Positions 14,797 to 33,431 are shown, counted from the first letter of the stretch. The stretch is 64,000 bases of DNA from Minisyncoccota bacterium (GCA_041664465.1 JBAYKP010000003.1:19405-83404), one strand, 5' to 3'. Notes: generated by a model not told the origin, from the sequence alone. Made by a program: numbers and translations.

Positions 14797-14838
14797 CTCC
14801 CCCTGCTAAGGGGGAGTGCCTGAAAGGCGAGGGGGTCA
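14797..14838. repeat. hairpin repeat family 2, copy B
   Basis: ctccccctgctaagggggag tgcctgaaaggcga gggggtc; intergenic. Confidence 0.45.
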
Positions 14839-16038
14839 AAGATCCAAACTCCACAGCATACCGTCTTTTTTGTTTATGAAGAATAAACTATTTTCTTTAT
14901 CACTTAGGAATAAATTAGTAGCATCTATGGGTGTCTCATTGCTAGAATTGGCAAAGGTAGTAGTCTCTTTAGTCTGGGTATTTATTTTTATAAATCTATC
15001 TTCAAAAGATATTAACCCTTGATACCAATAATCAGGATATTGCGTTCCTATTATTGTATTGGGGATAGCGCAATAAGCATTTATATTGTCATTACTCCAA
15101 ACACACTTCTCAGGTAATCCATATATATCTAAATCAAAAGATGTATGATTTTTAATATTAAAAACGTTTAATTTAGGGCCGATATTAAGAGAGGCTCCAT
15201 ATAATACAAGGTTGCCATTACTACTGGCAAGAGTCGTGAGGCCTGGGATACCTCCGAAAAGTTTCGTCAATGTTCCATTGGTAGTATTTAGACTGAAAGT
15301 ACTTCCATCTACTAGATAAGATGGCTTAGTAGTCAGATAGACGCCTTGATTTGTAACCCATTGTGGCAACCACTCAGAGAAACTAGAAGTGAAGACTTGG
15401 GAAGTCTTCGTCTCATCAAAAGGTTTAATCACTCCTATCACACCATTTTTATTTTTTATAATAGAAAAGAATTTAGTTTTGTCTGGAGATAGGCTGACTG
15501 CTGTAATATCAGGGTTTAAGAAACTGCCACTCTTCCCTCCAAGAGAAGCAAGGAAGCTTGTAATACTTTTATCATCAGATGAGGCATATCTATAAACAAT
15601 AGAAGTTCCACTGCCATTGAAAATTGTTTCGTAGACACTCGGAATTGTGGAATTTGATATTTTTCCAGTTATTTTCGTATCTAGATAAATTTGATATATA
15701 TGTCCAGTGGCACGTTCTACATATCGTAGTGATGGCACTGCTACCCCGTCTCTCATATCTTCAAAGAAGACAGCTCCAGCTACCGCGAAGTCTGTTATTT
15801 TATGGAAGCGTGAATTCTCCTTGATCACTTCTCCGGTTGTTGATGTGGTCACTTCATTTGGAGTAGTTGTCGTAGGAACTTTTGAACTTGTGCCAAAGGG
15901 ATTAAACTTTTGGTAAATACTTGTATTTGGGTCAGTTACAGCTACTCCCCTACTTTTGTTATAGAAATAAATACCGAGCATTATCGCTCCTACAAGTATA
16001 AACGCTGTTATGAAAATAATTATTGTTTTTCGTGGCAT
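14836..16038 (-). CDS. membrane-anchored extracytoplasmic hypothetical protein (Ser/Thr-rich linker, beta-rich domain)
   Basis: single N-terminal TM helix; first gene of the T4SS-like block on the minus strand. Confidence 0.5.
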   Translation of the reverse strand: MPRKTIIIFITAFILVGAIMLGIYFYNKSRGVAVTDPNTSIYQKFNPFGTSSKVPTTTTPNEVTTSTTGEVIKENSRFHKITDFAVAGAVFFEDMRDGVAVPSLRYVERATGHIYQIYLDTKITGKISNSTIPSVYETIFNGSGTSIVYRYASSDDKSITSFLASLGGKSGSFLNPDITAVSLSPDKTKFFSIIKNKNGVIGVIKPFDETKTSQVFTSSFSEWLPQWVTNQGVYLTTKPSYLVDGSTFSLNTTNGTLTKLFGGIPGLTTLASSNGNLVLYGASLNIGPKLNVFNIKNHTSFDLDIYGLPEKCVWSNDNINAYCAIPNTIIGTQYPDYWYQGLISFEDRFIKINTQTKETTTFANSSNETPIDATNLFLSDKENSLFFINKKDGMLWSLDL

Positions 16039-16049
16039 AAATTAATTAT

Positions 16050-17525
16050 TTAACACCCCCAACCATTTGCTGTTAGTTTATTAAAGTTGGCTTCAACTCT
16101 TGGTGCATATATTCTAGTTTGTTGGTATCCAGCATAAGCCGTGCATTGCCAATTTGTTGATCCTGGGCAAGCAGTAGCCTCTTTATTTGCACCAGGTCCC
16201 CCATTATAAGATGCAGCTAAATATTGTATATTTGAGATGTCACATACTGAAGATTTTGCAGAAAGATTACAACCATTTTTTTGGAGTTTGCTGAGATAAC
16301 TTGCACCAGCCATTATGTTTGTTTGTGCATCCATAGGGTCAGATCCTACACCTTGTTCCGCAAAGGTTTTTGGCATAAGCTGTATGAGTCCTTGAGCTCC
16401 TGATGGGCTTGTTAGATTATTTACCCCTCCAGACTCAGCATACATAAAAGATTTTAAGAGAGTACAACTCAATCCGTATTTTGAAGCAGCAGTTTTCAAC
16501 TGAGCATCGTATGTAGTTATATTTTTATTGGCATTTGGATTTCCAGGAGTTCCAATTGTAACTCCATAATAACCTCCGCCAGATGTTTGGGTTATTTCTA
16601 CACTTGCGGTATCTATTACCAACCCCTCTTTCCCTGTCAGTGCTGGATTGATAGTATTGAGTAATGCCCAAGCGCCGAGAGCTATGATTAATCCAAGGAC
16701 AGCTGAGAACATTTTCTTTTTCGCTTCAGTTTTGCCGAAAACAGATTCATCCCCCATATATGAGACTCCAGCTATTATAAGCATTATGACTGCAAGAGCA
16801 GCACATATCCCAATAGCAAGCTTGAAAATTATATTTAGATATTTCCCGATATCATTTGATATACAGTTTGTATCTTTACCACTTGAATCCATACAAGTAA
16901 TGTTGCCGATAGGAGCCAGCATTTTATAAATACTTTTATTCTCCGCAACATTTATTTTAGGAGTGACATCCACAGCAGGATCTTCTGCTAGTGCTATGGT
17001 TCCACTTGCATATATTTCATTATAATTACCATTAAAATCAGGATTAGCATTATAAATTTTCCAATGGAAAGGGACATTATTCTCTTTTGTTATTGAGAAA
17101 AGAAGCGCCATTGGGATTCTTACTGTTTTTTCTATTGTTTTCCCTTTATTTTCATCAGCGTTCATTTTTGTAACATACATCACCCCGTTGTCACTATTAG
17201 CTATAATCTCTGCTGGTGCTTCCGATAAACCAGATTTAAGAACAGTCCCACGAAGATCAAGCCGCTTACTATTAATATCAGCCTCAAAATACGAGTTAGC
17301 GTTTATGTCATTTGGTGACCCCATTGTTGTTGGGTTGTCTGCAACCTTAAAAGTAAAAGTAAAATCGTAATATTGACCACCAAAATTATTTACATCATAT
17401 TTATAAAGGTTAAGTGGAACATTTTTATTAATTAAAGAAATATTACCCGCCAATACCGAAGCAGGCATAATGAGATTTGTAAATAAAATAAACGATATTA
17501 AAATAGAAGAAAATATTTTTTTCAT
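16050..17525 (-). CDS. lytic transglycosylase (SLT domain) with N-terminal extracellular domain and central TM segment; VirB1/PrgK/TcpG-like cell-wall hydrolase
   Basis: C-terminal SLT catalytic motifs AESGG...GLIQLMP...YNGGPG; signal peptide; adjacent to VirB4. Confidence 0.7.
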   Translation of the reverse strand: MKKIFSSILISFILFTNLIMPASVLAGNISLINKNVPLNLYKYDVNNFGGQYYDFTFTFKVADNPTTMGSPNDINANSYFEADINSKRLDLRGTVLKSGLSEAPAEIIANSDNGVMYVTKMNADENKGKTIEKTVRIPMALLFSITKENNVPFHWKIYNANPDFNGNYNEIYASGTIALAEDPAVDVTPKINVAENKSIYKMLAPIGNITCMDSSGKDTNCISNDIGKYLNIIFKLAIGICAALAVIMLIIAGVSYMGDESVFGKTEAKKKMFSAVLGLIIALGAWALLNTINPALTGKEGLVIDTASVEITQTSGGGYYGVTIGTPGNPNANKNITTYDAQLKTAASKYGLSCTLLKSFMYAESGGVNNLTSPSGAQGLIQLMPKTFAEQGVGSDPMDAQTNIMAGASYLSKLQKNGCNLSAKSSVCDISNIQYLAASYNGGPGANKEATACPGSTNWQCTAYAGYQQTRIYAPRVEANFNKLTANGWGC

Positions 17526-17526
17526 A

Positions 17527-18531
17527 TTATAGTGTTAATTTTAATTGGCCAGTAACTTTTTGGAATAATTTACTTATATTCTCAAATGTGACATTTATAT
17601 CTGCATATCCCCCACGAGCTGTAGGTCTTATAGTTAGCTCTGTCTTTTTAAAAGGTGTAGAGATAGGATCTCCGTTTATATTCCAATTATAATTGAAATT
17701 ATCTTCACTACCTTTTATTGCAAGGAAATATGGCACAGCTACCATCGTCATCTCATCCCCTGTGAAAATTGTATCACTATTTAAAGCATTATTATATAGA
17801 GTCCCTTCGGTTGGCGATTTCTTATAAAAAATTACCTTCGGAGAATATGAAGAAACTGTTGTTGTTCTTTCAGCAGTATAATTCTCACCGACAGAAGAAG
17901 CTACTACTGTTATCATATTTTCTGTATCAAACAAATCATTACTGAAAACAAAAGAATTCTTATTATACCCAGAAGCATCAGTCACAGCGTTGTCATTATT
18001 TTTCCACGAGTAAGAAACATTTCCACCGCCAGACTTTATGGTATCTGTATTGGGGATTGCTACGGCTTTTATAATACCACCCCGAGAAGGGAGAGCCTTA
18101 CCTTTATAAAAGGGTGGCACGTATCCATCGAGAGATTCCCAGAGTAATTCAATCTCAGAAGGCGAGATAGAGACACTCTTCGTAATAGTACTCATAGCCC
18201 CAACAGGCTTTATCATAATATCAAAATTGGTTGTAGTATTAGGGCCTAAGGCTTTAAAAGAATAATCAGTCTTCCCTATTCCAGACAGCACAACCTTGGA
18301 GTTCATTTGCCAAGATATCGTAGCTTTATTCAAGTCGGTCGCGTAACTTGATATACTTATAGAGACATCCTCATATGGTTGTGGATTTTTAGGAGAGATT
18401 GTCACAATAATCTCATCTTCTTGGGTATTTATTTGCATTTCAGCAAAAGAAAAAGAATGAATAGACAATAGACTAACCATAAAAATCACCCCAATTAAAA
18501 ATTTCATTTTTATAAGCTTCACTTTATACAT
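17527..18531 (-). CDS. secreted hypothetical protein
   Basis: N-terminal signal peptide, beta-rich; between the VirB4 and SLT genes. Confidence 0.5.
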   Translation of the reverse strand: MYKVKLIKMKFLIGVIFMVSLLSIHSFSFAEMQINTQEDEIIVTISPKNPQPYEDVSISISSYATDLNKATISWQMNSKVVLSGIGKTDYSFKALGPNTTTNFDIMIKPVGAMSTITKSVSISPSEIELLWESLDGYVPPFYKGKALPSRGGIIKAVAIPNTDTIKSGGGNVSYSWKNNDNAVTDASGYNKNSFVFSNDLFDTENMITVVASSVGENYTAERTTTVSSYSPKVIFYKKSPTEGTLYNNALNSDTIFTGDEMTMVAVPYFLAIKGSEDNFNYNWNINGDPISTPFKKTELTIRPTARGGYADINVTFENISKLFQKVTGQLKLTL

Positions 18532-18560
18532 TATATAATATTTACCAAGTTATTGCATTT

Positions 18561-18654
18561 TCTCCCCTCCTTACCAAGGAGGGGACCAAGGAGAGGTTCT
18601 TAATTAATTAGGAACCTCTCCCTCCCCTCTCCTTAGTAAGGAGAGGAGCTAATT
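18561..18654. repeat. GC-rich palindromic repeat family 1, copy 2
   Basis: tctcccctccttaccaaggagggga...cttaattaattaggaacctctccc...ctccttagtaaggagagg; overlaps the VirB4 stop codon. Confidence 0.6.
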
Positions 18655-20478
18655 ACCACCCGACACAGCCAGATCATCCTTTGCTTTCTTAATAGCAAGG
18701 ATTTGAGATGGATCAGATGTGATAATTTGGTCTTCTGTATATGAAGCGATTGTCTTGATGGCTACGTGCTTGAGTCCAGCAAAGAATATTCCTTCTCCGA
18801 CATTGGCTTCGAGAAGTAGATACTTTTCTTCATCAGTAAGACTGAAAGTCTTCTGGAGGACATCAATAGTCGCTGGGGATTGCTTTAATAGAAGCTGAAT
18901 AGAAGAGTTCGTCACGATAGGCACGCCATAAGGGCTCTTCATAAAGTCCCCTACATCTTGGGTAATAGTAGCCAGACCTAGATAATATTTACGCCCTCTC
19001 TTAGCAATAGAATAAAGGAATGAAGCGGTATCTTCTGATTTCATCATCCACCAAGCTTCATCCACGACGAGTAATCGCTTCTTAAGATTTTTACGGACAG
19101 CATTCCAGATGAAGTGAGTGACTATATACATAGCCACAGGCTTGAGTTCATCTTCCATATCTCGCACAGAAAAGACGACGAATTTACGATTGATATCCAC
19201 ATTGGATGGTCTATTGATAAATGATGCCCAAGAACCGTGCGTATACTTCGCGATACGCTGTATTAGAGAGTTACTTCCCTCCATTCCAGCGAGGACAACT
19301 TCAAAGTCTGAAAGAAGTGGAGGTTCTATATTTGCAAAATTGGAAGATGCCGTTATGTCTTTCAGGGCATAAGTCTCTGTTATAGCTCGGTCTATGATGG
19401 AATCCTCTTCTGGCGTAAGTCCTCCGAGCATTATTCGGAATAATCCTACGAGGTTTATGGTATTGGAGCGGAGGACGTCGGCGGCTGTCTCATCCGGTCG
19501 TGGTATTGGTAGATCAAATGGGTTGATATGGTGGTCAGAGGAGAGGGCGATATTGAAATATCTACCACCTATGGCTTCTGCCAAGTATTCATATTCACGT
19601 TCAGGGTCTATGACAATAACTTCTGCATCAAACATAAGTGTACGGATAATTTCAAGCTTCGTGGCATAAGATTTACCAGCTCCAGCTGTGGCGAAAGTTA
19701 TAGAGTTGTAGTTTGGAAGAGAAAATCTGTCAAAAATGATAAGACTAGAGTTGTGCCTGTTCACTCCATAGAGAATTCCCTTATCTGAAGTCAAATCAAA
19801 TGAGACAAAAGGGAAAATACTTGAGAGAGGCTCTGTATCAAGCTTCTGATGAATTCCTAAAATATCAGTCCCCAGAGGAATAACACTTTTGAAGCCTTCA
19901 ACTTGTTGGAATAATGCTGGCTTCAAGTAGACAAGCTTAGAATCTAGAAGAGACTTCACCTCACTCTCTATTTTGAACAAATCATTTTCATTATCAGCAT
20001 AGACAGTAATATAAAGCCCCACATCAAACATTTTATTTTGAGCTTGCATTAGACTGTCACGCAAATTCTCGAGATCTTGGTAGGCAGTATCTAGCATCGG
20101 GTCGCGGACCAAACCTTTGGACTCACGGACAGATATTTGGCTTTGAACTTCCGCCACTTTCTTTTGGAAAGATCTTAGTATGTCGGCAGTTTCTATTGGG
20201 TGTATGAAGATAGAGACGTCAAAAATTTTGTCCAAGTTCACAATTGGTGAGAACCAATTATCCGTAAGATATCTAGGATAAGAAATGACGAAGAAAGTCC
20301 TCGCTATCTTATCTCCTAAATTTATAGACTTGGGGGTTATCTGAAGTGCCGAAGGTGCGATTACATCTTGGAGCTCAAGAGTGGCCGCTTTGTATATTTC
20401 GGTTGGCAAAACAGGCATAACGGTATTCGTCTGTTTTGATTTATTGCCCCCACTAAATATTGATGAAAATATTCCCAT
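18649..20478 (-). CDS. VirB4/TrbE/CagE-family T4SS ATPase, C-terminal part including the ATPase domain
   Basis: Walker A GAGKSY, Walker B hhhVVDEAW, family-typical central and C-terminal motifs. Confidence 0.75.
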   Translation of the reverse strand: MGIFSSIFSGGNKSKQTNTVMPVLPTEIYKAATLELQDVIAPSALQITPKSINLGDKIARTFFVISYPRYLTDNWFSPIVNLDKIFDVSIFIHPIETADILRSFQKKVAEVQSQISVRESKGLVRDPMLDTAYQDLENLRDSLMQAQNKMFDVGLYITVYADNENDLFKIESEVKSLLDSKLVYLKPALFQQVEGFKSVIPLGTDILGIHQKLDTEPLSSIFPFVSFDLTSDKGILYGVNRHNSSLIIFDRFSLPNYNSITFATAGAGKSYATKLEIIRTLMFDAEVIVIDPEREYEYLAEAIGGRYFNIALSSDHHINPFDLPIPRPDETAADVLRSNTINLVGLFRIMLGGLTPEEDSIIDRAITETYALKDITASSNFANIEPPLLSDFEVVLAGMEGSNSLIQRIAKYTHGSWASFINRPSNVDINRKFVVFSVRDMEDELKPVAMYIVTHFIWNAVRKNLKKRLLVVDEAWWMMKSEDTASFLYSIAKRGRKYYLGLATITQDVGDFMKSPYGVPIVTNSSIQLLLKQSPATIDVLQKTFSLTDEEKYLLLEANVGEGIFFAGLKHVAIKTIASYTEDQIITSDPSQILAIKKAKDDLAVSGGN

Positions 20479-20485
20479 AATAATT

Positions 20486-21139
20486 TTATTGTAATTTAAT
20501 TCCTTGACTAATATCCCCAGGATTGAATGTCTTATAGAAAAGTTCTACGACTTCGTCCGTTTTAAGCTGACTACTTCGTATCCCTATCCCACTTAATCCA
20601 TTAATAATGACGTTCGTTCTTTGTTCTAGCTGGCTACGCTTCTCCTCGAAAGATGCTAGATCCATAGCCTTCTTGGTATCCTCTACTTGTTTCTTGGGGG
20701 CTCCGCCACCAATCAGACTATCTACTATGCCATTCCCAGATTTTATAATACTTGAACTATATGGCACAACGACGAAGAAAGTTTTCGTCATTATGTTCAC
20801 TTCATCTGTGAAAGATCGAATGAAGTCTATATATTCTTTCGTCTGTATTTTAAGGAGGGGTTCGGTTTGCTCTTTCAAGCGATTCTCAAGCATTAAGAGA
20901 TATGGCCTTATATTCAAGCGTCTGGACTGGATTACAATTTGAGTGGAGAAATCTAGACCATTTAAGAATGATTGGAATTGATTAATAATGGCGACTTGTT
21001 CATCGGAAGACTTAAGAGAGAGGTTGATGGAGGAAGCGATAAGGATAGCACGAAGACCACCATCCTTAAGTACAATGATGCCATTGCGGACCTCCTTTAT
21101 AGGAACGAACTCTTGTGCTGCTTTTGAATCAATTGCCAT
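20486..21139 (-). CDS. VirB4-family N-terminal domain, separate ORF ending 7 nt upstream of the ATPase ORF in a different frame
   Basis: pattern IKEVRNGIIVLKDGGLRAILIASSINLSLKSSDEQVAIINQFQSFLN typical of conjugative VirB4 N-termini; the two ORFs total 826 aa. Confidence 0.5.
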   Translation of the reverse strand: MAIDSKAAQEFVPIKEVRNGIIVLKDGGLRAILIASSINLSLKSSDEQVAIINQFQSFLNGLDFSTQIVIQSRRLNIRPYLLMLENRLKEQTEPLLKIQTKEYIDFIRSFTDEVNIMTKTFFVVVPYSSSIIKSGNGIVDSLIGGGAPKKQVEDTKKAMDLASFEEKRSQLEQRTNVIINGLSGIGIRSSQLKTDEVVELFYKTFNPGDISQGIKLQ

Positions 21140-21163
21140 AATTTATACTAATATTATATCACA

Positions 21164-21574
21164 CTATTTATCGTTTCTATCTTGAACGTCCAAACTCCAA
21201 GATAAATCCTTCAATTTACTTTCTGAAAGCATTGGTACATTGGATATGGTAGTGGGCATTTGCACATCTTCATCTTGTATATCCCCTTTCTTTACAAGTC
21301 TTTGCTTCCACAAGTAAAGTTTGCTTGAGATTAAGTAATTAAAAGAAGCTTCTAAATAATATATGAAAGGCTTGCCATTTATTTTCACAAAGACGAGGCA
21401 GACAGTAAGCCCAGCGACGGGTAAGATAAGGAAGATGCCTATCCAAAGTGGCAAGATTTTGTATATGACGAAAATTATTCCTCCTCCACCAATCAAAAAG
21501 GCAAATTGGCGAAAGGTAAAAGGGCCAAAAATTTTATCTTCTATGTCTATAAATTGTGGTACTTTGAATTGCAT
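21164..21574 (-). CDS. small two-TM membrane protein, PrgI/VirB3-like
   Basis: 136 aa, two TM helices, immediately upstream of VirB4. Confidence 0.4.
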   Translation of the reverse strand: MQFKVPQFIDIEDKIFGPFTFRQFAFLIGGGGIIFVIYKILPLWIGIFLILPVAGLTVCLVFVKINGKPFIYYLEASFNYLISSKLYLWKQRLVKKGDIQDEDVQMPTTISNVPMLSESKLKDLSWSLDVQDRNDK

Positions 21575-21576
21575 AT

Positions 21577-22602
21577 CTATATTTCCTCATGATATGGATC
21601 GTGAGGTTTTGATTGAGGTTCTCCGCTCATCTTTGGTAGAGAATAGTCACTTACAGAAGCTTTGCTAGTTGTATTACCGAATAGTTTATTGGTGATGATG
21701 TTGGGAGTAGGTGTGGATTTTTCATCATCTGAAATTATTTCTATGCCGTGTTCTTTATACATATCAGTTTCTTTGGTATTCGTATTTGCAATTATATTTT
21801 CTATTTCACTTTGAGAAGACCCCTTCTGCCCTTCAGGCATCTCCCCCTTAGCAGGGGGCGAAGAAAATACAGGTGATGGTATCGGAACAACTTCTTCTTT
21901 CTTTTTCGCATAAGGCGGAAGTGGCACCTCATCATTTGATTTTTCATTCTTAACTACTTTTATCCCTTCTTCTTCTACATTTTTTATATTTTTAAATATA
22001 TTTTCATTTATTTCCCCCACCATTTCTTGTATTTTATCATTCCCCAAGTCTATCTTGGACCTTATGGCATCTTCATATTGATTACCCGCTATGGTATTCA
22101 GTATTACCTTTACTGTGATGTCTTCTAATATTCCCATTTGCTCCACATTAATCTTATACTTTCTAGCTACATCATATAATTTTTCTTTCCAATTAGAATA
22201 AGCAATTGATTCTTGGATGTCTTTCGGTAAGCTTGCAAAACGAAGATCAAGATTTTTATTATTTAAAGAGATTGCGTTGGATTGGAAAGTTTCAGTAAGC
22301 TCTCCTTTTATTGTTTTAAGGATATTTTCATCTATTTCTATTAATATTTTTTCTGTAACTTCTTTTTCTAATTCCAAATCTTTCCTTAAAATATTTTGAT
22401 ATTCTTCAATATGAATAATACCCAGTAATACCAAGGTGGTTTCTGTGGCTAAAATTTCTATCCGATTTTCTTTTAAACCATATTTAATACCAAGTTCTTT
22501 AAGTTTTTCCATCCAGAGCATAGAAGAGAAAACACTCTGAGCCTCTTTCGGGAGCTTCTGGTAGTATTCTGCTATTTTTTGTTGTAATTGTATTTGATCC
22601 AT
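21577..22602 (-). CDS. hypothetical protein; contains an in-frame partial copy of repeat family 2 (plus 21841-21860, encoding SPPAKGE)
   Basis: no recognisable family; inside the T4SS-like operon. Confidence 0.45.
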   Translation of the reverse strand: MDQIQLQQKIAEYYQKLPKEAQSVFSSMLWMEKLKELGIKYGLKENRIEILATETTLVLLGIIHIEEYQNILRKDLELEKEVTEKILIEIDENILKTIKGELTETFQSNAISLNNKNLDLRFASLPKDIQESIAYSNWKEKLYDVARKYKINVEQMGILEDITVKVILNTIAGNQYEDAIRSKIDLGNDKIQEMVGEINENIFKNIKNVEEEGIKVVKNEKSNDEVPLPPYAKKKEEVVPIPSPVFSSPPAKGEMPEGQKGSSQSEIENIIANTNTKETDMYKEHGIEIISDDEKSTPTPNIITNKLFGNTTSKASVSDYSLPKMSGEPQSKPHDPYHEEI

Positions 22603-22611
22603 AGTTATTTT

Positions 22612-25374
22612 TTAGTGATGAGCCCCACCTCCTCCATGTGCATCTCCTCCTGTGCTTGTTGGTGCTTTTGGAACTTCTATTTTTACACCCTTCAGTGCTT
22701 CTGTAATTGTTGCTCCTATATCTTTTATCGCATCTCCTTGCCCTTGTCCGTGGTTAACCCCAGAGCTCTTTAATCCAGCACGAACACCAAGAGCTACTCC
22801 AGCAATCATAGCAGTTGGAATTTTATTAAAGAATCCGTCTCTCTTATCTGTATTAACTTGAGAAATATTTCGAACATCATAACTAGCCTTATTTGATCTA
22901 GCGAAGCCTCTTGTAAGCATTGAAACATTTTGTTTAGATTCTTCACGTAAGTGTTTGAATAATCCTTCAAGTTGAGCATCTGTTGTAACTTTTACTGCGG
23001 CATTTAATTTGATATCCAATTCATCTTCCATTTTCTTCTGTACTTCACCCTTTAACTCACCATTTTTATCCAAATTCTTTGAATCTTTTTTCAACTCAGC
23101 AGCCACTTCTTCTCGGTTTTTTGATTTGAACGCCTTTTCTCCTACAAAACTACGGCCCTTTTCATCTACAATTCTTGCTTCGTTTTTACCAGTAGCATCA
23201 AGACCTTTTCTTGCATTTGTTTCAACATCAGATCTCTTTGTCTTATTAAAGGTTGTTTTTAGCTTGTTTTCATCTTCACCAGAAATATTACTATCTTCTA
23301 ATATATTACCATTAGCATCTACAAGTCCAGCAGCTTTCTTCGTCTCGTCTATTTCATGACGAGCATGGTCAATCTTATTCGTATCTCTTTGTGATTTATT
23401 TAGCTGAGCACCCAAACGACTAAATACGTTAGTTTTAGGAACAGCATTTGCCTTTTTATGATCTTCCCATGTTGGTTTAGCCCCTCTTGTTTTAGGATCT
23501 GCAGCTTTCCACTTCTCAAGGTTATCATTGAATTTAATTTTTTCTGTTTTTATTTTATCAAGATTTTCTGGAGTAGCTCCTTCCATTCGTGACATTTTAG
23601 CTATTCCTGCACCAACGACTCTTCTTCCTAATAATGCAGTTCCAAGTGCCGCTCCACCAAGAAGCATTCCACCAGTTGCGGCTATTCCTCCTGTAATTTG
23701 TTTACCTATCTCCCCAGACATATCTGAAGCGATACCTTTTGCTTTTATAAGGAAAATCATTATAAAAATAAAAGGTATGGTTATTCCTAAAATAAAATCT
23801 AAACCACTTTTACCATCGGTAGAGAAAAGACCTAGCCCAGTATCAAGGAATTTAATTATTATATATAAAAAGAAAATAAATACAGGGGCAAGGAATGCCA
23901 TCTTCAAAGTATCTGGCCACCAATTCTTCCATCCAATCATTTTTATACTAGACATTTCAGGAAGTATATAAGTGAAGAATGCAAGTGGGGCTAGGATCAT
24001 AGCGAGCCAGAGTCCGATGACTCGAGCCACGAACATTAATCCAACAGAAATAAATACAATAATCCCAACAATATTAATGGCGGATGTTAGTAAAATAACC
24101 AAGATAAAAGTGCTAGCAGAGATTCCATTTTTTTGGGTTCCATCTGATCCAATATTTCCTTTTGCTGTTATATTACCGACGTCTGATGCATTTATAATTA
24201 ATTTTTGTGGATTAATTTTTGAAACAAGCGCTTCTGATAATTTTATTTCACCGGTAGATCCAGGTGCATTTTGTATTACCCCATCAATCTTGGGGCCTAC
24301 TTTTATAGCGTCTGAATTGTAGAAAACTCTAGCAGTAATATTGGATGCATCAATAATCACTTGAGTAGCGAAAAGAGAAAAGTTTATAAATAGTCCAATG
24401 ATAACTATATTTATAATAGTTTCTTTGGTTTTCACACTATGCAAGTTTAGTATTGTGCCTATCGCTATATAAAGCATTATGAATATGAAAAATAAATTAC
24501 AGAAATCACGCACAAGCCCCCAGCCTTGCACTACGAAAGTAGACCGATACGAAGAATCTTGGACAGAGTATGAAAAAGTTTTATCAAACAGTGTTCCAGA
24601 TAAAGCAAATAAAACAGAAGTTGGTTTGAAGACTGCCCAATAAAGAAGACTACCAAAACAGCCACCAATATTACTCCAAAAATTCCATGGACATTGTGGT
24701 AGTATAGAATCAAGATAATTTTGATTAACATTTACATTTTTATCAAGAGTCACCACCTGTGGGTTATCAGCGCTGTTTGTTGTTATTGCGGGAGATTCAC
24801 CTATGGATGTTTCATTTGATTCAGTACCGGGATCTGCAAGTTTAGCACCAATTGCAATACCGACTGCCATTCCTAAAGGATTTAAAGTAAAAATTCCTGC
24901 TACAACACCACCAGCAAATCCACCAGCAGCACTAACGATAGTGGAGGCCCAAAGAGGAGTTGTTTGCGATGCAACAGTTTTTAAAACATATGTTGTGCTA
25001 GGATTTAAGTTTGGAAAATTAAAGCTACCAGTTCTTACTACATAAGCTTCTTTCTCCATAGTAGTATTATCTCTTACTGCATCTTCAAGTTTAATATTCT
25101 GTACGAAAAGTGCGACATTATTTGTGTCTAAAAGATAAACAATTGCCGCAGCCTTACTTATATTAAAATCACCACTTTCAAAGACAACGCGTACGGTCCC
25201 AGATATTGTGGTGTTTGTCTTTTGTGGAGATGTTGTTACTTTTATACTATCAGCCGCACTGGCTTCATTCTTCCCAATCTCCACCTTATTTTTATTCCAC
25301 CCCACACTAAACGGAGCGAAGAGGTTCGCAGAGATTATGAGTGATATTAAGATGTATGATATGATTCTCTTCAT
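22612..25374 (-). CDS. large polytopic membrane protein, VirB6/TrbL-like candidate: signal peptide, roughly 300-aa exodomain, multi-TM core, long Lys/Glu-rich tail ending in Gly/His
   Basis: topology read from the translation; head of the operon containing VirB3/VirB4. Confidence 0.45.
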   Translation of the reverse strand: MKRIISYILISLIISANLFAPFSVGWNKNKVEIGKNEASAADSIKVTTSPQKTNTTISGTVRVVFESGDFNISKAAAIVYLLDTNNVALFVQNIKLEDAVRDNTTMEKEAYVVRTGSFNFPNLNPSTTYVLKTVASQTTPLWASTIVSAAGGFAGGVVAGIFTLNPLGMAVGIAIGAKLADPGTESNETSIGESPAITTNSADNPQVVTLDKNVNVNQNYLDSILPQCPWNFWSNIGGCFGSLLYWAVFKPTSVLFALSGTLFDKTFSYSVQDSSYRSTFVVQGWGLVRDFCNLFFIFIMLYIAIGTILNLHSVKTKETIINIVIIGLFINFSLFATQVIIDASNITARVFYNSDAIKVGPKIDGVIQNAPGSTGEIKLSEALVSKINPQKLIINASDVGNITAKGNIGSDGTQKNGISASTFILVILLTSAINIVGIIVFISVGLMFVARVIGLWLAMILAPLAFFTYILPEMSSIKMIGWKNWWPDTLKMAFLAPVFIFFLYIIIKFLDTGLGLFSTDGKSGLDFILGITIPFIFIMIFLIKAKGIASDMSGEIGKQITGGIAATGGMLLGGAALGTALLGRRVVGAGIAKMSRMEGATPENLDKIKTEKIKFNDNLEKWKAADPKTRGAKPTWEDHKKANAVPKTNVFSRLGAQLNKSQRDTNKIDHARHEIDETKKAAGLVDANGNILEDSNISGEDENKLKTTFNKTKRSDVETNARKGLDATGKNEARIVDEKGRSFVGEKAFKSKNREEVAAELKKDSKNLDKNGELKGEVQKKMEDELDIKLNAAVKVTTDAQLEGLFKHLREESKQNVSMLTRGFARSNKASYDVRNISQVNTDKRDGFFNKIPTAMIAGVALGVRAGLKSSGVNHGQGQGDAIKDIGATITEALKGVKIEVPKAPTSTGGDAHGGGGAHH

Positions 25375-25472: not shown

Positions 25473-26171
25473 TTAATTACTATTATTATCAAGATTTAAT
25501 TTTAGTAAGAAAATAGTCTCCTTTTTAAGTTTTTCACGGGCCCAATCCTTTTGAGACGAAGAAAGCAATTCCCCAAGACCGTCTAAGATATGCTTATTAT
25601 CCATATTTTCAAGCATCTTTATACACTTGATCAAAGTATCTTTAAAAGATATACCAGATCTATTTTCCACTATCTTTTTATTTATCTCCCAGTTGTTTTT
25701 ATAAAAGAAATAAACATCAAATATGTCTCTGCTTGTTTTGCCAATTCTTTCATACATAGCCATAAGTTTATGGGCAAACATATCTTCTTTGACCATTACA
25801 AGCATTGAGATGCCGAGCAATGTTTTAATCTCATATTTAGAGCCAAATTGTCTACGGCTCACTTCTACTTTTATTTGCTGAGCTCCTTTCTTATATGAAA
25901 TAATATTAAGCAAATTGAAATGCTTTATCCTAGATTCTGTGATAGTCCCATAGCTTTCAGTAATTTTCTGAATCTTATTAAAGACCTCTTCTTCCTTAGT
26001 ATCATCCAATAAATCAAAATCAAGATCCACTGAATTACGATCTAAGCCGTAGAATAAAAGAGCGGCAGTGCCACCTTTGAATCCAAGATATGGAGAGATA
26101 GAGGTGTCAGAATAAATATCTTTCAAGATTTGAAGTAATATATTTTTGTGTTTTGAATAGTCTAATGTCAT
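25473..26171 (-). CDS. AbiEii/AbiGii-family nucleotidyltransferase (type IV toxin-antitoxin or abortive-infection toxin)
   Basis: FKGGTAALLFYGLDRNSVDLDFDL matches the family GGTAL...R.S.DLDF signature. Confidence 0.55.
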   Translation of the reverse strand: MTLDYSKHKNILLQILKDIYSDTSISPYLGFKGGTAALLFYGLDRNSVDLDFDLLDDTKEEEVFNKIQKITESYGTITESRIKHFNLLNIISYKKGAQQIKVEVSRRQFGSKYEIKTLLGISMLVMVKEDMFAHKLMAMYERIGKTSRDIFDVYFFYKNNWEINKKIVENRSGISFKDTLIKCIKMLENMDNKHILDGLGELLSSSQKDWAREKLKKETIFLLKLNLDNNSN

Positions 26172-26191
26172 ATTTTTTTATTTTCTTCTTT

Positions 26192-26839
26192 TTATTTTTT
26201 AAAATCATCATAATACTTCTTCACGGTTTTTGCCATTCTCTTATTATGATAGATTGGCAAGATTTCAAATACTTTTTCCCAATCTAATGGGTTTGTGTTA
26301 TCAATATAATATTTTTTACTTACATATATACGGTCTAAGTAAGCACGCTCTTTTGTTGCTCTGGCATAACCGTCACTATTTTCAATTCCTAAAGTATTAC
26401 TTAATACATAATCTTTCATTCTAATAAATTCTATTTTTTGTCCATCAACTTCCATTTCTCTTTTTATGTATGAAGCCACAAAAATATTTCCATAATATTG
26501 GAAAGTCATACCAGATGAACCCAAGACAGTTTCAAAGCTGATATATGAAGGAGTATTTATTCTAGTGGCTAATTCAAAGCGGTTATAGTTTTTATCTTTA
26601 ACATATAAACCACGATGAACTCTAATCAACTTCTTTGCTTTAACGTAGTAATTCAATCTCACACGCACAGGTCCGTTAGCCTTTTCTCCCCACATTAAAG
26701 CAACATCTTTATTGGAAAAGACGGTTTTACTAGACCTCAATAAAATATCTAAATATTCCCCTTTTTGAATTTTTTTATCCATATATCTACTGGAACTTAG
26801 TTTAAACCTAACATCCAGTCCATATACTAGCATAAACAA
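26192..26839 (-). CDS. AbiEi-family antitoxin/transcriptional regulator candidate
   Basis: directly upstream of AbiEii on the same strand; LIRVHRGLYV matches the AbiEi motif; probable start at the internal MDKK. Confidence 0.45.
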   Translation of the reverse strand: MFMLVYGLDVRFKLSSSRYMDKKIQKGEYLDILLRSSKTVFSNKDVALMWGEKANGPVRVRLNYYVKAKKLIRVHRGLYVKDKNYNRFELATRINTPSYISFETVLGSSGMTFQYYGNIFVASYIKREMEVDGQKIEFIRMKDYVLSNTLGIENSDGYARATKERAYLDRIYVSKKYYIDNTNPLDWEKVFEILPIYHNKRMAKTVKKYYDDFKK

Positions 26840-26986
26840 TATATAAATACAACCCTTTTAATCTCCTCCTTATAGAGTGGCTGTAAGCCGGGATGGACTG
26901 ACATTTGACACATTTTACATATCTGATATACTGTACTTACATTCGGGATTTTCCCGCGACCCTACTGGTAAAACAGTGGGGAATAT

Positions 26987-27400
26987 TTATTTATACAGAC
27001 TATTAAACCCTATTCTAACCTTTTTAAAATCTTCACCATCTAATGTTCCAAGTTTTGAGAATAGTCTACGATAATCCACAACCCTTACTTGATGTAAACA
27101 AGCAAACATTTCTATGTTTTTATGAATAAAACCCACATACCAAGAACCCCTTTTGTCTTTCGTTGTAGTAGGAATAATAAGATAGAAACTGTGTGATAGT
27201 TTCTTATAAATAATTCCAGGTCTTGTAAATATTTCACTTTTACCATTTATCTCTGATCCAACATTTTCTCCTAGACTTATCCACCAAATATCTCCCTCTG
27301 ATACAAAAGGAGGCCGCGATTCTTTATTGTGCAACTTCTCTTTCAACCCTATCCATTCTAGAAATTTTTTAATTATATTATGTTTTTCTTTTTCCAACAT
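26987..27400 (-). CDS. MazF/PemK-like endoribonuclease toxin with about 40-aa N-terminal extension
   Basis: GDIWWISLGENVGSEI...RPGII, IIPTTTK and HQVRVVDYRRL align with MazF GDLIWVDF...RPAVVL, CVPCTTQ and ADQVKSIAWRAR. Confidence 0.5.
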   Translation of the reverse strand: MLEKEKHNIIKKFLEWIGLKEKLHNKESRPPFVSEGDIWWISLGENVGSEINGKSEIFTRPGIIYKKLSHSFYLIIPTTTKDKRGSWYVGFIHKNIEMFACLHQVRVVDYRRLFSKLGTLDGEDFKKVRIGFNSLYK

Positions 27401-27555: not shown

Positions 27556-29496
27556 TTACCAAATATTCAAAATTCTTTCCGTATTATCCAGTATTACTCC
27601 ATCTTTCCAACTACAACCAGCTTCAAGTATCTCCTTTCGTGGCATTCCTTTATCTAATTGGGTGGTATTTTTATCTGATTGATCAATAAATGCTCTATAA
27701 TTATAACTAATTATAGAATCACCAGGGAAACCACCACCATTAGCCTCTCTTCCATCTCCACCTTGGTAATGCCCTGTATATATATTTGGGTCATCATTTA
27801 TTTGTTTTATTTTTCCATAACCTGGAAAATTATTGAATTTATTACAATCTTCTCCTGCTACACCCAATGTTGTAATTCTATCACCAGTGAATTTGTCTAT
27901 TGTTTCATTTCCAAAACCAAAGGTGGCGATACTTGCAATTTCCCCTAAGAAATTAACAGTTTTATTTACTTTTCTAATAATAACAGCATCTTTGGTTAAT
28001 TTTCCATAATAATATCCAGATATAACTTTAAATCCTGCTGGAGTCATTCCTCCTTCTAGTTTAGTATAATCTAGATATCCAACATTATCATTTGTATAAG
28101 GGAAGCTTCCACCTGTTGTTTTTGTATACCAAGGGTTACCGTGTCTCTTCCAACTATTAGCAATAATCATTGCCGGAGTTACTTGGTCATAGCACTGATT
28201 TGTTAATCCGTCTATCTGGCTTATGAAATTTTTATTTTGTTCTATTTCATTATTCAAAGTAGTTAAATCCTCGGCTGTTCTAAGAGTAGAAGAGACGAGG
28301 TAGAATTTGCGAAGCAGTACTGCCAGTCTAGCCTTTTCATCTTCTGTGAAGACTAGTGGATTCTTCTCTATTGCCAAGCATTTGTTTTCAATAACGGTTT
28401 GTGTGATAGGGTTAATAGCCGGATTATTGTTATCTGGTGGAGTTCCTGTGTCAGTGTTTGGAGTAGTAGGATTAGCAGGGGCAGTTTGGTCTGGTGGAGT
28501 AATAGGATTGAAGGCAGGTGCTCCAGGTGTACCAGGAGTGCCTATATCTGGGGTATTTACGTTGAAGTTTATTGGACCAAAGATTGAACCCCAATAATCA
28601 AGCATATCCATTGGTATATCATTTAAAATCTGAGCATTTAAATAGTTAATCATATTCATCTGCCCATTACTTAAACTTCGATTACCATTTACAGCACTTA
28701 AGATACTAGAACTTAGACTTCTGATATTATTTTTCTGAGTATTACTTAGGTTGGTATTTGTAGATAAAAGATTTAGAAGTTTAGTATTCAAACCATTTAG
28801 AGTATTTCTTTGCAGGGTACTCATGTCTTTATTATTTGCAGAGTCTCCTATACGAATAGAGCCATTGACCGCATCTACTTTTATCACGCTTCCTACAGGG
28901 ACTACAAATGATGGAGAGACTGGAGCATTCTTGGTCATTCCTCCATATATTTTATCGCTTAGATAAAGTGGATTGTTTGCTATCCAGAAAGTCCCCTCTT
29001 TTCTATTAGTAGGGACTCCACTCAGGATTCCTTCTATTATTACGTCCAGCATTGCACCTTTAGTCATATCTTGCCCTGCGACGCCAAAGACTAGAGATTT
29101 GTTCTTGTCATTTGCTATTGCTTTCATTACTATTGGGTCGTCATTTTTATTAAACCCTGCGATATAAAGTACATCACCCTTTTTCAAACTCTCTCCTGCT
29201 TCTGCACGGACGACTTTATTACCATTCACATCGGTAATTACTACACCCGCCCTTTTCTTTACGGCCGGAGTGGTATCTACTACAGGAGTGGTAGGGGTAG
29301 TATCTATTACTTTCACATCTTTCCCCTTAGAAGATCCTAATAATGGAGAGAATACTTTACTAATAGAGAGAGAACCCTTCGCTCCGAAGTATTGCTCTCT
29401 ATTCTTAAAGAAATAATAACCTGCTACTAAAAGTATCAGAATCAGTATGAATGTGATGATGAATGCTTTGCTTTTTTTAGGGTTATTGTTATCCAT
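27556..29496 (-). CDS. membrane-anchored large hypothetical protein with Pro/Thr-rich linker
   Basis: N-terminal TM helix; TPGTPGAP...NPTTPNTDTGTPPD linker; no recognisable family. Confidence 0.5.
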   Translation of the reverse strand: MDNNNPKKSKAFIITFILILILLVAGYYFFKNREQYFGAKGSLSISKVFSPLLGSSKGKDVKVIDTTPTTPVVDTTPAVKKRAGVVITDVNGNKVVRAEAGESLKKGDVLYIAGFNKNDDPIVMKAIANDKNKSLVFGVAGQDMTKGAMLDVIIEGILSGVPTNRKEGTFWIANNPLYLSDKIYGGMTKNAPVSPSFVVPVGSVIKVDAVNGSIRIGDSANNKDMSTLQRNTLNGLNTKLLNLLSTNTNLSNTQKNNIRSLSSSILSAVNGNRSLSNGQMNMINYLNAQILNDIPMDMLDYWGSIFGPINFNVNTPDIGTPGTPGAPAFNPITPPDQTAPANPTTPNTDTGTPPDNNNPAINPITQTVIENKCLAIEKNPLVFTEDEKARLAVLLRKFYLVSSTLRTAEDLTTLNNEIEQNKNFISQIDGLTNQCYDQVTPAMIIANSWKRHGNPWYTKTTGGSFPYTNDNVGYLDYTKLEGGMTPAGFKVISGYYYGKLTKDAVIIRKVNKTVNFLGEIASIATFGFGNETIDKFTGDRITTLGVAGEDCNKFNNFPGYGKIKQINDDPNIYTGHYQGGDGREANGGGFPGDSIISYNYRAFIDQSDKNTTQLDKGMPRKEILEAGCSWKDGVILDNTERILNIW

Positions 29497-32546: not shown

Positions 32547-33431
32547 TTATTGCAAAATTTCAGATATTTTCTCTAGGTCTGTTCCCAATGCGTCATTATA
32601 CTTTTTATAGTTCAGGATTCCTTTCATTCCCCCGAGTGGGTCACCCAGCATTGTGGTAAGACTATGAATAGTTTGGCCAGTTTTCTCGTAATTGTTGGAT
32701 GCATTTAATTGTAAATCTGCAAGAGCTTTGGGGACGGGGACTTTTATGAATTCTTTGCCGAAATTTTGGTATGCGATGGCGACAGTCTTGGCAGCATACA
32801 AGGCTTGTGGGTCTTTATTGTTTAATCCTTGAATGATGAAAGTGAGCTCATTGCCAATATCGGCATCTTTATATTTAGTTACGAGCTTGCTCAGATTGTT
32901 TTGATAAGTAGTATTGGCAATAGCAGAATCATTCACTATACTCATCATATTGCGAGTATAAATATCCTTGATCTCTACAGCTTTTACATTATCCCCTATG
33001 GCACTAGTAATAGCGCCCAGTGATTCATCGTTGAGAGATCCTGTCTGTTGTAATGATACAATTGCGGCGAAAAATTCTTGAGATAAGACTTCGTTATCTG
33101 TGATAGTTTGAGATGGATCGGCTGATAGTGGGTCGTTGTTTTCTGCTAAAGTTTTCTTTTTGGCTAGGATAAATTCTTTATTCTCTGGGCCATTTTTATA
33201 AGGGTCGAGACCCCAGAGATACTCCTCCCAGTCGGCTATGCCGTTATTATTGCTATCTTTTTGGATGATTTCTCCGATGGTCACTTTTACAGGTTGACGA
33301 ACTGAGGGCTTTTTATTTTTAAAAAGAGAAATAACCCCTTTGATAGAGAAGAATATGATAATCAATATTATTATGAAGAGAATAATTGCTTGGAATTTTT
33401 TGCTTGGGAGGTAATTTTTATAATCACTCAT
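32547..33431 (-). CDS. membrane-anchored hypothetical protein
   Basis: N-terminal TM helix; tail gene of the surface-protein operon. Confidence 0.5.
   Translation of the reverse strand: MSDYKNYLPSKKFQAIILFIIILIIIFFSIKGVISLFKNKKPSVRQPVKVTIGEIIQKDSNNNGIADWEEYLWGLDPYKNGPENKEFILAKKKTLAENNDPLSADPSQTITDNEVLSQEFFAAIVSLQQTGSLNDESLGAITSAIGDNVKAVEIKDIYTRNMMSIVNDSAIANTTYQNNLSKLVTKYKDADIGNELTFIIQGLNNKDPQALYAAKTVAIAYQNFGKEFIKVPVPKALADLQLNASNNYEKTGQTIHSLTTMLGDPLGGMKGILNYKKYNDALGTDLEKISEILQ

Follow-up and report, generated by a model that had tools for sequence, protein, structure and literature searches.

The gene cluster described here is almost certainly a chromosomally fixed, vertically inherited type IV secretion system (T4SS) of the Patescibacteria clade, with the Paceibacteria layout beside the replication origin genes. 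It lies in a stretch of 64,000 nucleotides (hereafter the window) from a Paceibacteria (Parcubacteria) bacterium, and its most likely role, we think, is that of an envelope conduit that serves interaction with a host and not conjugation. Because the cluster matches published Patescibacteria T4SSs (Wang et al., 2023; Quinonero-Coronel et al., 2025), the finding at the level of the system is already known. Its one less ordinary feature is the fusion of the sole pilin-like protein with a wall-cutting enzyme, the type of which is swapped among close relatives.

Gene order and extent of the block

A reading of the DNA alone (the sequence-only reading) had reported eight co-directional minus-strand genes running from 25374 down to 14836, and all eight ORFs (8/8) were found at these coordinates, encoding proteins of 920, 341, 136, 217, 609, 334, 491 and 400 aa in order of transcription. 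The gaps between them are 1-24 bp, with a single exception of 117 bp. Directly 3' of the last gene is a strong terminator-like G+C hairpin with a T-rich tail (14797..14816, minus strand); the hairpin (14816-14797) has eight pairs, six of them G-C, and is the top-scoring terminator-like site within 14.7-33.7 kb. One flank of the block consists of rpmH-rnpA-yidD-yidC-jag and dnaA-dnaN, and the other of AbiEii/AbiEi and MazF.

As relatives, we took the best 80 of at least 595 matching stretches in a genome collection, picked by VirB4 similarity (hereafter the 80 best-matching loci). These loci of ~20 kb each come from Paceibacteria, Nomurabacteria, other Patescibacteria or unclassified MAGs. The order kept across relatives is ksgA-294-982-646-920-341-prgI-trsD-virB4-334-491-400 (numbers being protein lengths), followed by jag-yidC-rnpA and then dnaA-dnaN. 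The defence/toxin-antitoxin islet of the window (25473..27400, minus strand), comprising AbiEii (25473-26171), AbiEi (26192-26839) and MazF/PemK (26987-27400; all by Pfam), has no counterpart in any of the 80 best-matching loci. There, the genes for the 646-, 982- and 294-aa proteins adjoin the 920-aa gene directly, reaching ksgA, with the 646-aa gene immediately upstream of the 920-aa gene. The islet is thus an insertion, outside the machine, in a longer conserved block, which spans 14836-33431 of the window. The sequence-only reading had placed the block between the rpmH-yidC-jag locus and the islet; both flanks are indeed present, but the block continues past the islet to ksgA.

All three genes beyond the islet are on the minus strand and encode proteins that are anchored at the N-terminus or, in one case, anchored or secreted. 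The first gene of the block, adjoining ksgA, encodes a 294-aa anchored protein with a DxDxDG-type motif (32547..33431), syntenic in 39 of the 80 best-matching loci; its family gave no PDB-profile match. The 982-aa protein (29519..32467), anchored or secreted, combines a conserved core (aa ~170-480) with acidic, Cys-rich repeats towards the C-terminus (NCBIfam acidic double-disulfide repeat, 32 bits, under its cutoff), and is syntenic in 44-45 of these 80. The anchored 646-aa protein (27556..29496; TM helix at aa 12-30) varies among relatives, with partial matches at the syntenic site in 9/80.

An ICE, the alternative that the sequence-only reading had itself raised, is ruled out because the block and its housekeeping flanks keep their synteny in dozens of species; no relaxase family was found among the window's ORFs of 100 aa or more, and its sole tyrosine recombinase (58063-59004) lies 33 kb off, amid housekeeping genes.

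Motor, candidate channel and accessory proteins

The 609-aa ORF (18649..20478, minus strand) encodes the C-terminal ATPase part of a VirB4-type ATPase of the monoderm CD1110/MPF_FATA type, with intact Walker A and Walker B motifs. It scores 366.7 bits against NCBIfam NF045971 (the CD1110 family; cutoff 325), and also matches Pfam P-loop_TraG (2.9e-24), PDB 4ag5 (1.1e-36), pCF10 PrgJ (1e-41, phmmer) and, under its equivalog cutoff, the NCBIfam VirB4_plasma model. The top 80 VirB4 genome matches (of at least 595) are all from Patescibacteria or unclassified MAGs and share 76-94% identity with it, while the nearest plasmid VirB4 proteins, whose hosts are all monoderm, share 28-37%. DnaA is less well conserved than VirB4 in these 80 genomes (median identity 64% vs 80%), a comparison that is somewhat biased since the loci were selected on VirB4 similarity.

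Immediately upstream, a 217-aa TrsD-like protein (20486..21139, minus strand) is the equivalent of the VirB4 N-terminal domain in its own ORF. It matches NCBIfam TrsD (1.8e-8), aligns to positions 2-119 of the CD1110 VirB4 model and carries the precomputed annotation PF26593 (TraC-like). As a separate TrsD-like ORF of about 212-220 aa is found in nearly all of the 80 best-matching loci, the split of VirB4 is natural, and a frameshift is ruled out as its cause. A few shorter TrsD-like ORFs among the 80 loci appear truncated. The next gene encodes a 136-aa PrgI/VirB3-like protein (21164..21574, minus strand) with two TM helices (aa 19-37 and aa 45-63), which scores 39.8 bits against Pfam PrgI (PF12666, cutoff 27) and less well against TcpE. 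A VirB4 divided into an N-terminal-domain ORF and an ATPase ORF, and a two-TM PrgI/VirB3-like protein, are what the sequence-only reading had proposed, and both hold at the level of family models.

Its VirB6/TrbL label for the 920-aa polytopic membrane protein (22612..25374, minus strand) did not fare as well, as neither this protein nor 41 relatives have any Pfam or NCBIfam match; hhalign against PrgH was also negative. The protein has eight hydrophobic segments; behind its signal peptide come an fn3-like ectodomain, a core (aa ~236-595) of six or more TM helices and, in the cytoplasm, a long helical tail. In a Foldseek search with its AF2 model (pLDDT 73), the sole long membrane-protein match was R388 TrwI/VirB6 (8rt9_F), over 316 columns, with a probability of 0.80 and an E-value of 0.22, which is weak. 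The gene occupies the position where monoderm systems encode VirB6. From position, topology and this one structural match, we infer that the 920-aa protein is a candidate VirB6 equivalent.

The remaining proteins of the eight-gene block are less readily named. The 341-aa protein (21577..22602, minus strand) is cytoplasmic, without TM helices, and has two tandem helical repeats of ~100 aa (31% identity, E 5e-11) and a low-complexity tail; homologues occur in 44-50 of the 80 best-matching loci. Directly downstream of virB4, the 334-aa protein (17527..18531, minus strand) is beta-rich and secreted or N-terminally anchored. It has no Pfam, NCBIfam or PDB-profile match, yet is kept at the same position in 77/80 of these loci. 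The last gene encodes a 400-aa protein (14836..16038, minus strand) with a TM helix (aa 3-29), a disordered linker (aa 30-73) and a beta-propeller (aa 78-400), the latter from an AF2 model (pLDDT 84.8, pTM 0.76) that matches tricorn, acylaminoacyl-peptidase and TolB propellers in Foldseek (E 1e-9 to 1e-11). This protein is a conserved accessory of the cluster (67 of the 80 best-matching loci), and among 1439 propeller homologues, many ~495-aa versions have PG_binding_1 (PF01471) in the linker. The secreted 334-aa protein and the membrane-anchored beta-rich protein of the sequence-only reading are thus both recovered, the first by its N-terminal hydrophobic helix (a signal or anchor) and the second as an anchored propeller. 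Signal or anchor helices at the N-terminus are present on the 334-, 400-, 491- and 920-aa proteins. A VirB8-like NTF2 protein was not found by phmmer with PrgL or by PDB matches to the 334-, 294- and 982-aa family profiles, and the 400-aa protein is a propeller by Foldseek rather than an NTF2 fold. The VirB7, B9 and B10 families likewise gave no match in Pfam or NCBIfam searches.

A pilin hairpin fused to wall enzymes that are swapped among relatives

The 491-aa protein (16050..17525, minus strand) is a mosaic. Its signal peptide is followed by a variable N-terminal domain (aa 27-195), a VirB2-like pilin hairpin (aa 196-300; DNA 16626-16940) and an SLT lytic transglycosylase (aa 345-452; DNA 16170-16493). 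The hairpin brings the protein to 28.3 bits against Pfam T4SS_pilin (PF18895, cutoff 26.6) and scores 123 bits with a local HMM; a TrbC match is weaker than those to T4SS_pilin and SLT, and the NCBIfam Mbov_0395 pilin-like family reaches 35 bits (cutoff 40). No other VirB2-like hairpin was found within the 64-kb window. The SLT domain scores 57.4 bits (Pfam), with the catalytic E364 and the GLIQLM motif intact. The sequence-only reading had correctly seen a membrane-anchored SLT protein, but it overlooked that the anchor is the pilin hairpin, which bears domains of ~200 aa at both of its extracellular ends.

In relatives, the hairpin carries NlpC/P60, VanY, YkuD, M15, amidase, 3D or SLT domains, a clear case of module shuffling. 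C-terminal extensions of at least 120 aa are present on 69/77 hairpin ORFs of relatives, with at least nine peptidoglycan-active Pfam families found C-terminal to the hairpin. The monoderm VirB1-type peptidoglycan hydrolases PrgK, TcpG and TraG of pIP501 are likewise membrane-anchored, T4SS-encoded and built from a mixture of glycosidase and peptidase modules. However, they are anchored by a simple TM helix at the N-terminus, whereas the 491-aa protein uses a VirB2-like two-helix hairpin, preceded by a signal peptide and a further ectodomain that varies. We found no report of a pilin hairpin and a wall enzyme as one polypeptide with swapped cassettes in the literature searched; the survey of Patescibacteria T4SSs by Quinonero-Coronel et al. 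(2025) treats VirB2 and VirB1 homologues separately and does not mention such a polypeptide.

Related systems and the role of the machine

With VirB4, TrsD, PrgI, pilin and SLT families all found, the sequence-only reading was right in seeing a monoderm (Gram-positive)-style T4SS-like block, and the comparison of synteny with CPR loci that it had suggested leads to published Patescibacteria systems. In that survey (Microb Genom, PMC12102498), Patescibacteria T4SSs have an MPF_FATA-type VirB4, a separate TrsD and PrgI/VirB3, share VirB2-like PF18895 pilins near virB4 and have no relaxase or T4CP found nearby, relaxases being scarce. In Paceibacteria, they sit beside dnaA, dnaN, rnpA, ksgA and rpmH, as here, and we see no system-level differences. 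The Southlakia epibionticum cluster SEML1_0006-0019 (Wang et al., 2023, Cell, PMC10633639) has the same core order (large polytopic protein, PrgI, TrsD-like protein, VirB4, wall hydrolases), and both clusters lie near the chromosome start with PF18895 pilins and without a recognisable relaxase or coupling protein. However, S. epibionticum has six small separate pilins, an NTF2-like protein and separate large hydrolases (one lysozyme-like plus cysteine peptidase, one DD-peptidase), where the present cluster has one hairpin fused to SLT together with a beta-propeller and other accessory proteins, and no NTF2-like protein was found.

Among conjugative systems, the prgH-prgI-prgJ-prgK order of the MPF_FATA prototype, Enterococcus faecalis pCF10 Prg/Pcf, where prgH is VirB6-like, prgJ encodes VirB4 and prgK a hydrolase, parallels 920-[341]-PrgI-TrsD/VirB4-[334]-491. 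However, pCF10 has PcfC (VirD4), the PcfG relaxase, the VirB8-like PrgL and the PrgB adhesin but lacks a VirB2-like pilin. PcfC, PcfG, PrgH, PrgL, PrgF and PrgK gave no phmmer match in the window. A separate homologue of the VirB4 N-terminal part, of TrsD type, is shared with pGO1/pSK41 Trs (the TrsD subclass) and the Mycoplasma ICE (Mbov_0395/0397), although these are conjugative elements with relaxase and T4CP, and scores here are under the equivalog cutoffs.

In the proposed mechanism, PrgI would dock the TrsD/VirB4 motor onto the VirB6-like channel in the cytoplasmic membrane, and the pilin-like hairpin, after Sec insertion, would dock at the same platform in the manner of VirB2. This would put the wall-cutting domain at the very point where the machine has to cross peptidoglycan, be it the layer of the cell itself or that of its attached host. 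The extracellular part may be built or stabilised by the propeller and the secreted proteins. The frequent extensions of the hairpin, the range of wall-active families and the PG_binding_1 propellers count toward such a wall-crossing role.

The same proteins could be read as an organelle for adhesion or envelope work without transport, in which the task of the ATPase is confined to building a surface structure, while the fused enzymes remodel the wall of the cell itself. The accessory proteins that are conserved lie mostly outside the cell, some relatives of the propeller are PG-binding, and the wall enzymes may be VirB1 analogues of which any one will do, comparable to PrgK and TcpG with their several domains. 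We nevertheless regard this reading as unlikely, given that a VirB6-like channel candidate and a strongly constrained VirB3/VirB4 motor (VirB4 median 80%) go beyond what an adhesin anchor needs, and that in Saccharibacteria type IV pili are credited with adhesion (PMC12857230, PMC10633639).

A machine for conjugation or DNA export, mobilising chromosomal DNA or an unlinked element with a coupling protein and an unrecognised relaxase from elsewhere, seems to us quite improbable, even though the core parts all derive from monoderm conjugative systems and a UvrD helicase lies 9 kb upstream of the block. As the sequence-only reading had noted, VirD4 and relaxase are not in view: none of the ORFs of 100 aa or more in the 64-kb window matches a VirD4/T4CP or relaxase family, and phmmer with PcfC and PcfG as queries gave no match out to 10 kb from virB4 in the 80 best-matching loci (~20 kb each). 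Either protein could be encoded elsewhere in the genome; in many Patescibacteria, VirD4 is common and usually far from virB4, yet few genomes have relaxases (109 in 3,035), and in S. epibionticum the distant T4CP is dispensable while the T4SS is essential (PMC12102498). A mobile element is also hard to reconcile with a chromosomal block whose synteny with housekeeping genes is fixed from species to species.

We give similarly little credence to a competence-like DNA-uptake T4SS, as in H. pylori ComB or archaeal Ced, that would draw nucleotides from DNA of the environment or the host. T4SS importers independent of relaxase exist, Patescibacteria are unable to make nucleotides (PMC12857230), and the T4SS of the ABY1 class co-localises with comF, recG and radA (PMC12102498). 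However, the similarity to NCBIfam CedB and CedD is weak (27 and 15 bits) and far below the cutoffs of 700 and 600, no competence genes were found adjoining the block, and competence in S. epibionticum needs ComEC and type IV pili, comEC deletion leaving viability unaffected while the T4SS is still essential (PMC12857230).

The reading we prefer, a conduit for host interaction, agrees with the view of the sequence-only reading that the role is probably other than classical conjugation, and with the published work (PMC12102498, PMC10633639, PMC12857230). All functional evidence was obtained in other classes, namely Saccharibacteria, or stems from a preprint without peer review. Epibiotic growth of the Saccharibacteria member S. 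epibionticum requires its homologous cluster SEML1_0006-0019 (PMC10633639), and the preprint describes a cultivated relative, able to take up RNA of its host, in which tubular structures that may be T4SS pili penetrate the host (bioRxiv 10.64898/2026.06.21.733656). Rather than conjugating a mobile element, the machine would then be a conduit or contact organelle through which these bacteria exchange macromolecules with their host, by effector export or uptake of host material.

A conserved block beside the replication genes

Eight minus-strand ORFs between 14836 and 25374, named here by length (400, 491, 334, 609, 217, 136, 341 and 920 aa), had been read from sequence alone as a block resembling a type IV secretion system (T4SS), and all were found at these coordinates. 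They are densely packed, with gaps of 1-24 bp and a single exception of 117 bp, and a terminator-like hairpin (14816-14797), the strongest of its region, closes the block. A promoter scan gave matches no commoner than in shuffled sequence. On the left, the block is flanked by dnaN and dnaA, then rpmH, rnpA, yidD, yidC and jag/KhpB; on the right follow AbiEii, AbiEi and a MazF/PemK toxin (25473-27400).

To compare this arrangement with relatives, we searched a genome collection with VirB4 (at least 595 matching stretches) and kept the best 80 loci, which are 76-94% identical. They derive from Paceibacteria, Nomurabacteria, other Patescibacteria or unclassified MAGs, with some records labelled otherwise. 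The gene order in these loci is ksgA-294-982-646-920-341-prgI-trsD-virB4-334-491-400, followed by jag-yidC-rnpA and then dnaA-dnaN. Beyond the islet, three further proteins with N-terminal anchors (294, 982 and 646 aa; 27556-33431) share the conserved neighbourhood of the T4SS block. AbiEii, AbiEi and MazF have counterparts in none of the 80 loci, indicating that the islet is an insertion within a conserved block in this genome. It looks like a recent arrival in an essential-looking operon region; its toxin lacks an obvious antitoxin ORF, and a search for bounding repeats returned only short, chance-level ones. The extended block and the inserted toxin-antitoxin islet are two refinements of the sequence-only reading worth recording.

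The median identities across the same genomes differ widely between components: 80% for VirB4, 61% for TrsD, 51% for PrgI and 33-36% for the exposed proteins. VirB4 (18649-20478) is also more conserved than DnaA (11387-12826; 64%), although its identity, and the gap to DnaA, are somewhat inflated because the loci were picked by VirB4 similarity.

Several other features of the surroundings were observed. Towards its C-terminal end, the 982-aa protein (29519-32467) matches an "acidic double-disulfide repeat" below threshold (32 bits vs a cutoff of 41), and its conserved core holds invariant Trp, Gly and Cys positions with no known fold. The longest dnaA ORF (11387-12826) overlaps the longest rpmH ORF (12803-13003) head-to-head; both starts are probably over-extended, with rpmH most likely beginning at '[12 protein letters not shown]', and the short dnaA-rpmH gap could hardly accommodate an origin. 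Next to ruvB and ruvC, some 10 kb away from the origin genes, is a T2SSE ATPase of the PilB/GspE type that carries an MshEN domain (2251-3951), the motor type of type IV pili or type II secretion systems. An AAA_14/DUF4143 ATPase (36407-37537), between uvrD and a DUF5663 ORF, is probably another strain-specific insertion, as only 3/80 related loci have matches. Further on, a run of large proteins without family match (954, 690 and 493 aa; 38080-44623), the 690-aa one nonetheless carrying a YkuD L,D-transpeptidase domain, is followed by a divergent LysM-LysM-Peptidase_M23 protein (44994-46190). Together these genes (38080-46190) make up another accumulation of surface proteins active on the cell wall, which the relatives' loci (+/-10 kb) lack.

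Motor, membrane proteins and the search for conjugation genes

The 609-aa protein is a monoderm-type VirB4 ATPase, as the sequence-only reading had proposed. It matches the NCBIfam "VirB4-like conjugal transfer ATPase, CD1110 family" (366.7 bits vs a cutoff of 325), Pfam P-loop_TraG (2.9e-24) and the Thermoanaerobacter VirB4 structure 4ag5 (1.1e-36), and its Walker motifs are intact, with GAGKS at aa 266 for A and LLVVDEAW at aa 469 for B. The adjacent 217-aa protein corresponds to the start of these VirB4 models (first ~120 positions) and also matches the TrsD/TraD family. A frameshift can be dismissed as the cause of this split; a separate TrsD-like ORF of about 212-220 aa occurs in nearly all 80 related loci (a few shorter ones look truncated), and hence the division is native. 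The 136-aa protein, previously called a two-TM PrgI/VirB3-like protein, bears out that description with 39.8 bits (cutoff 27) and two TM helices. The cytoplasmic 341-aa protein contains an internal tandem duplication and showed no relation to the nearby DUF5663 ORF when the two were compared. The secreted or anchored 334-aa protein is kept in 77/80 loci and has no detectable family.

The VirB6/TrbL label given to the 920-aa protein found no HMM support. Neither Pfam nor NCBIfam matched it or 41 relatives, precomputed PF19590 entries on 6/120 homologues were not reproducible, its family profile found nothing among PDB sequences, and hhalign against pCF10 PrgH gave a probability of 0.1. Its AF2 model (pLDDT 73 overall, 80-90 in the membrane core) combines an fn3-like ectodomain with a membrane core of several helices (aa ~236-595) and an extended helical tail. 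Foldseek against the PDB returned nothing significant with this model; the sole long membrane-protein alignment was a sub-threshold one to R388 TrwI/VirB6 (316 columns, probability 0.80, E 0.22). The place of the gene ahead of those for PrgI and VirB4 parallels the prgH-prgI-prgJ order of pCF10. From gene position and topology it is a reasonable inference that this is the VirB6 equivalent, although family membership is not demonstrated, and the unverified label is a further refinement to record.

A VirB8-like protein was also sought. PrgL was negative by phmmer, and family profiles of the 334-, 294- and 982-aa proteins found nothing in the PDB. The 400-aa protein was rejected as a candidate when its model (pLDDT 84.8) proved to be a TM-anchored beta-propeller, best matching tricorn, acylaminoacyl-peptidase and TolB propellers (E 1e-9 to 1e-11). 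A peptidoglycan-binding domain (PG_binding_1) sits in the linker of many of its 1439 homologues.

The earlier remark that no relaxase or coupling protein is in view holds for the 64-kb window. A Pfam scan of every window ORF of at least 100 aa found neither, and pCF10 PcfC (VirD4) and PcfG (relaxase) matched nothing in the window or the 80 loci; PrgJ, used as a query in turn, matched VirB4 in the window and all 80. The sole tyrosine recombinase of the window lies 33 kb off amid housekeeping genes. This XerC/D-like gene, followed by an Exo_endo_phos nuclease (58063-59792), is about 3 kb from four tRNA genes (62634-63804), with no sign that it bounds a mobile element holding the T4SS. We reject an integrative and conjugative element because synteny with housekeeping genes is conserved and the 64-kb window holds no relaxase, coupling protein or nearby integrase.

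This T4SS cluster is already known. Exactly this system has been described as a monophyletic Patescibacteria VirB4 clade nested in MPF_FATA, found in 2,407/3,035 assemblies with TrsD, PrgI/VirB3, some VirB6, VirB2-like pilins (PF18895) and occasional VirB1, and almost no relaxases; in Paceibacteria it adjoins dnaA, dnaN, rnpA, ksgA and rpmH (Quinonero-Coronel et al., 2025; PMC12102498). The Saccharibacteria homologue (SEML1_0006-0019) also lacks recognisable coupling or relaxase proteins and is essential for epibiotic growth (Wang et al., 2023; PMC10633639). Since these descriptions match, the overall interpretation in the sequence-only reading was right, and this cluster is a further example of a system already regarded as near-universal among Patescibacteria. 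Given this, and its essentiality for epibiotic growth in the one genetically tractable species, its presence here is expected.

The hairpin protein and its variable modules

The less ordinary detail lies in the 491-aa protein, previously read as a membrane-anchored SLT lytic transglycosylase. The enzyme stands, its SLT domain scoring 57.4 bits and retaining the catalytic Glu (E364) and a GLIQLM motif, but the anchor is not a simple one. From the N-terminus, the protein consists of a signal peptide, a domain of about 170 aa and a two-helix hairpin that passes the Pfam T4SS_pilin threshold (PF18895, 28.3 bits vs 26.6) and weakly matches TrbC/VirB2 and a Mycoplasma ICE pilin-like family. An HMM built from relatives gives this VirB2-like hairpin 123 bits and picks up no second one anywhere in the 64 kb. 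A hairpin ORF is present in 73/80 related loci, usually one each, and at least 120 aa follow the hairpin in 69 of 77 such ORFs. The sole pilin-like element of this lineage is covalently linked to a wall-cutting enzyme.

The modules on both sides of the hairpin are reshuffled between close relatives. Clustering of 67 homologues by sequence gave 19 unrelated groups for the C-terminal parts and 32 for the N-terminal ones, and the two partitions disagree with each other. Peptidoglycan enzymes of at least nine Pfam families occupy the C-terminal side: NlpC/P60 (14), VanY (8), YkuD (5), Peptidase_M15_4 (3), Amidase_5 (3), SLT (2) and SLT_2 (2), as well as Amidase_2, 3D and SLT_4 (examples in relatives' loci are L001:12915-14582, L004:11873-13714, L006:12872-14278 and L013:3479-5203). 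The window's own SLT is absent from all 80 related loci; in a large protein database, about two dozen clusters do combine it with the hairpin. Several C-terminal clusters have no Pfam match.

Pairwise alignments with individual homologues reveal clean mosaicism. P0122 shares the N-domain (80%) and hairpin (88%) with the window protein but not the C-domain (21%). In P0123, hairpin (72%) and SLT (78%) are the common parts and the N-domain is different (14%). P0134 has the hairpin alone in common (91%), and P0155 joins it (81%) to NlpC/P60. The C-terminal cluster of P0122 and P0134 has an "ESSG...GLFQ" pattern resembling a divergent lytic transglycosylase. The names given in public annotations vary with the half that was recognised, and include "pilin", "D-Ala-D-Ala carboxypeptidase" and "ErfK/SrfK". 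In the 2025 survey, VirB2 and VirB1 homologues are tallied as distinct components and a fusion goes unmentioned (PMC12102498), and our literature search, of incomplete coverage, found no report of one. This mosaic of pilin hairpin and peptidoglycan enzyme is a refinement worth recording.

Possible roles of the apparatus

We favour a host-contact conduit, for effector export or import of host material, over conjugation, because the motor is strongly constrained, the exposed parts turn over fast, the chromosomal site is fixed and DNA-processing genes are absent from the window. In such a conduit, PrgI would hold the TrsD/VirB4 motor at the polytopic channel protein. The hairpin, inserted by Sec with both termini outside, may dock at the channel as VirB2 does, which would place a wall-active enzyme where the apparatus crosses the peptidoglycan. 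The propeller, which has peptidoglycan-binding relatives, and the secreted proteins would form the extracellular part. Patescibacteria T4SSs have been called unique among monoderms for their essentiality and possible pili (2025 review, PMC12857230), and in a 2026 preprint on a cultivated relative that takes up RNA from its host, tubular structures that may be T4SS pili are reported to penetrate the host (bioRxiv 10.64898/2026.06.21.733656). The same preprint connects host-RNA feeding in the phylum with PNPase and VirB4; a polynucleotide phosphorylase gene (53120-55246) co-occurs with the T4SS in our window, and we note it as co-occurrence only.

The swapped enzymes could open the cell's own wall, in the role of VirB1, or the host's, as effectors of host range. 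Action on the cell's own wall, or only locally, is mildly favoured, since the cassette comes without a variable immunity-like gene and is followed downstream by the gene of the conserved propeller. A bolder reading, which we consider rather unlikely, is that the Paceibacteria hairpin is not primarily a pilus subunit but a conserved handle for docking and recombination, by which exchangeable extracellular cassettes are loaded onto the T4SS, namely a variable N-terminal binding domain and a variable C-terminal peptidoglycan enzyme (SLT, NlpC/P60, VanY, YkuD, M15, amidase or 3D), and that the swapped enzyme acts on the host wall and helps set host range. Such an arrangement would resemble a polymorphic effector system rather than a housekeeping VirB1. 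If the cassette does track host wall chemistry, it would offer a host-range marker readable from sequence for thousands of uncultivated Paceibacteria, and a concrete handle on what this T4SS does.
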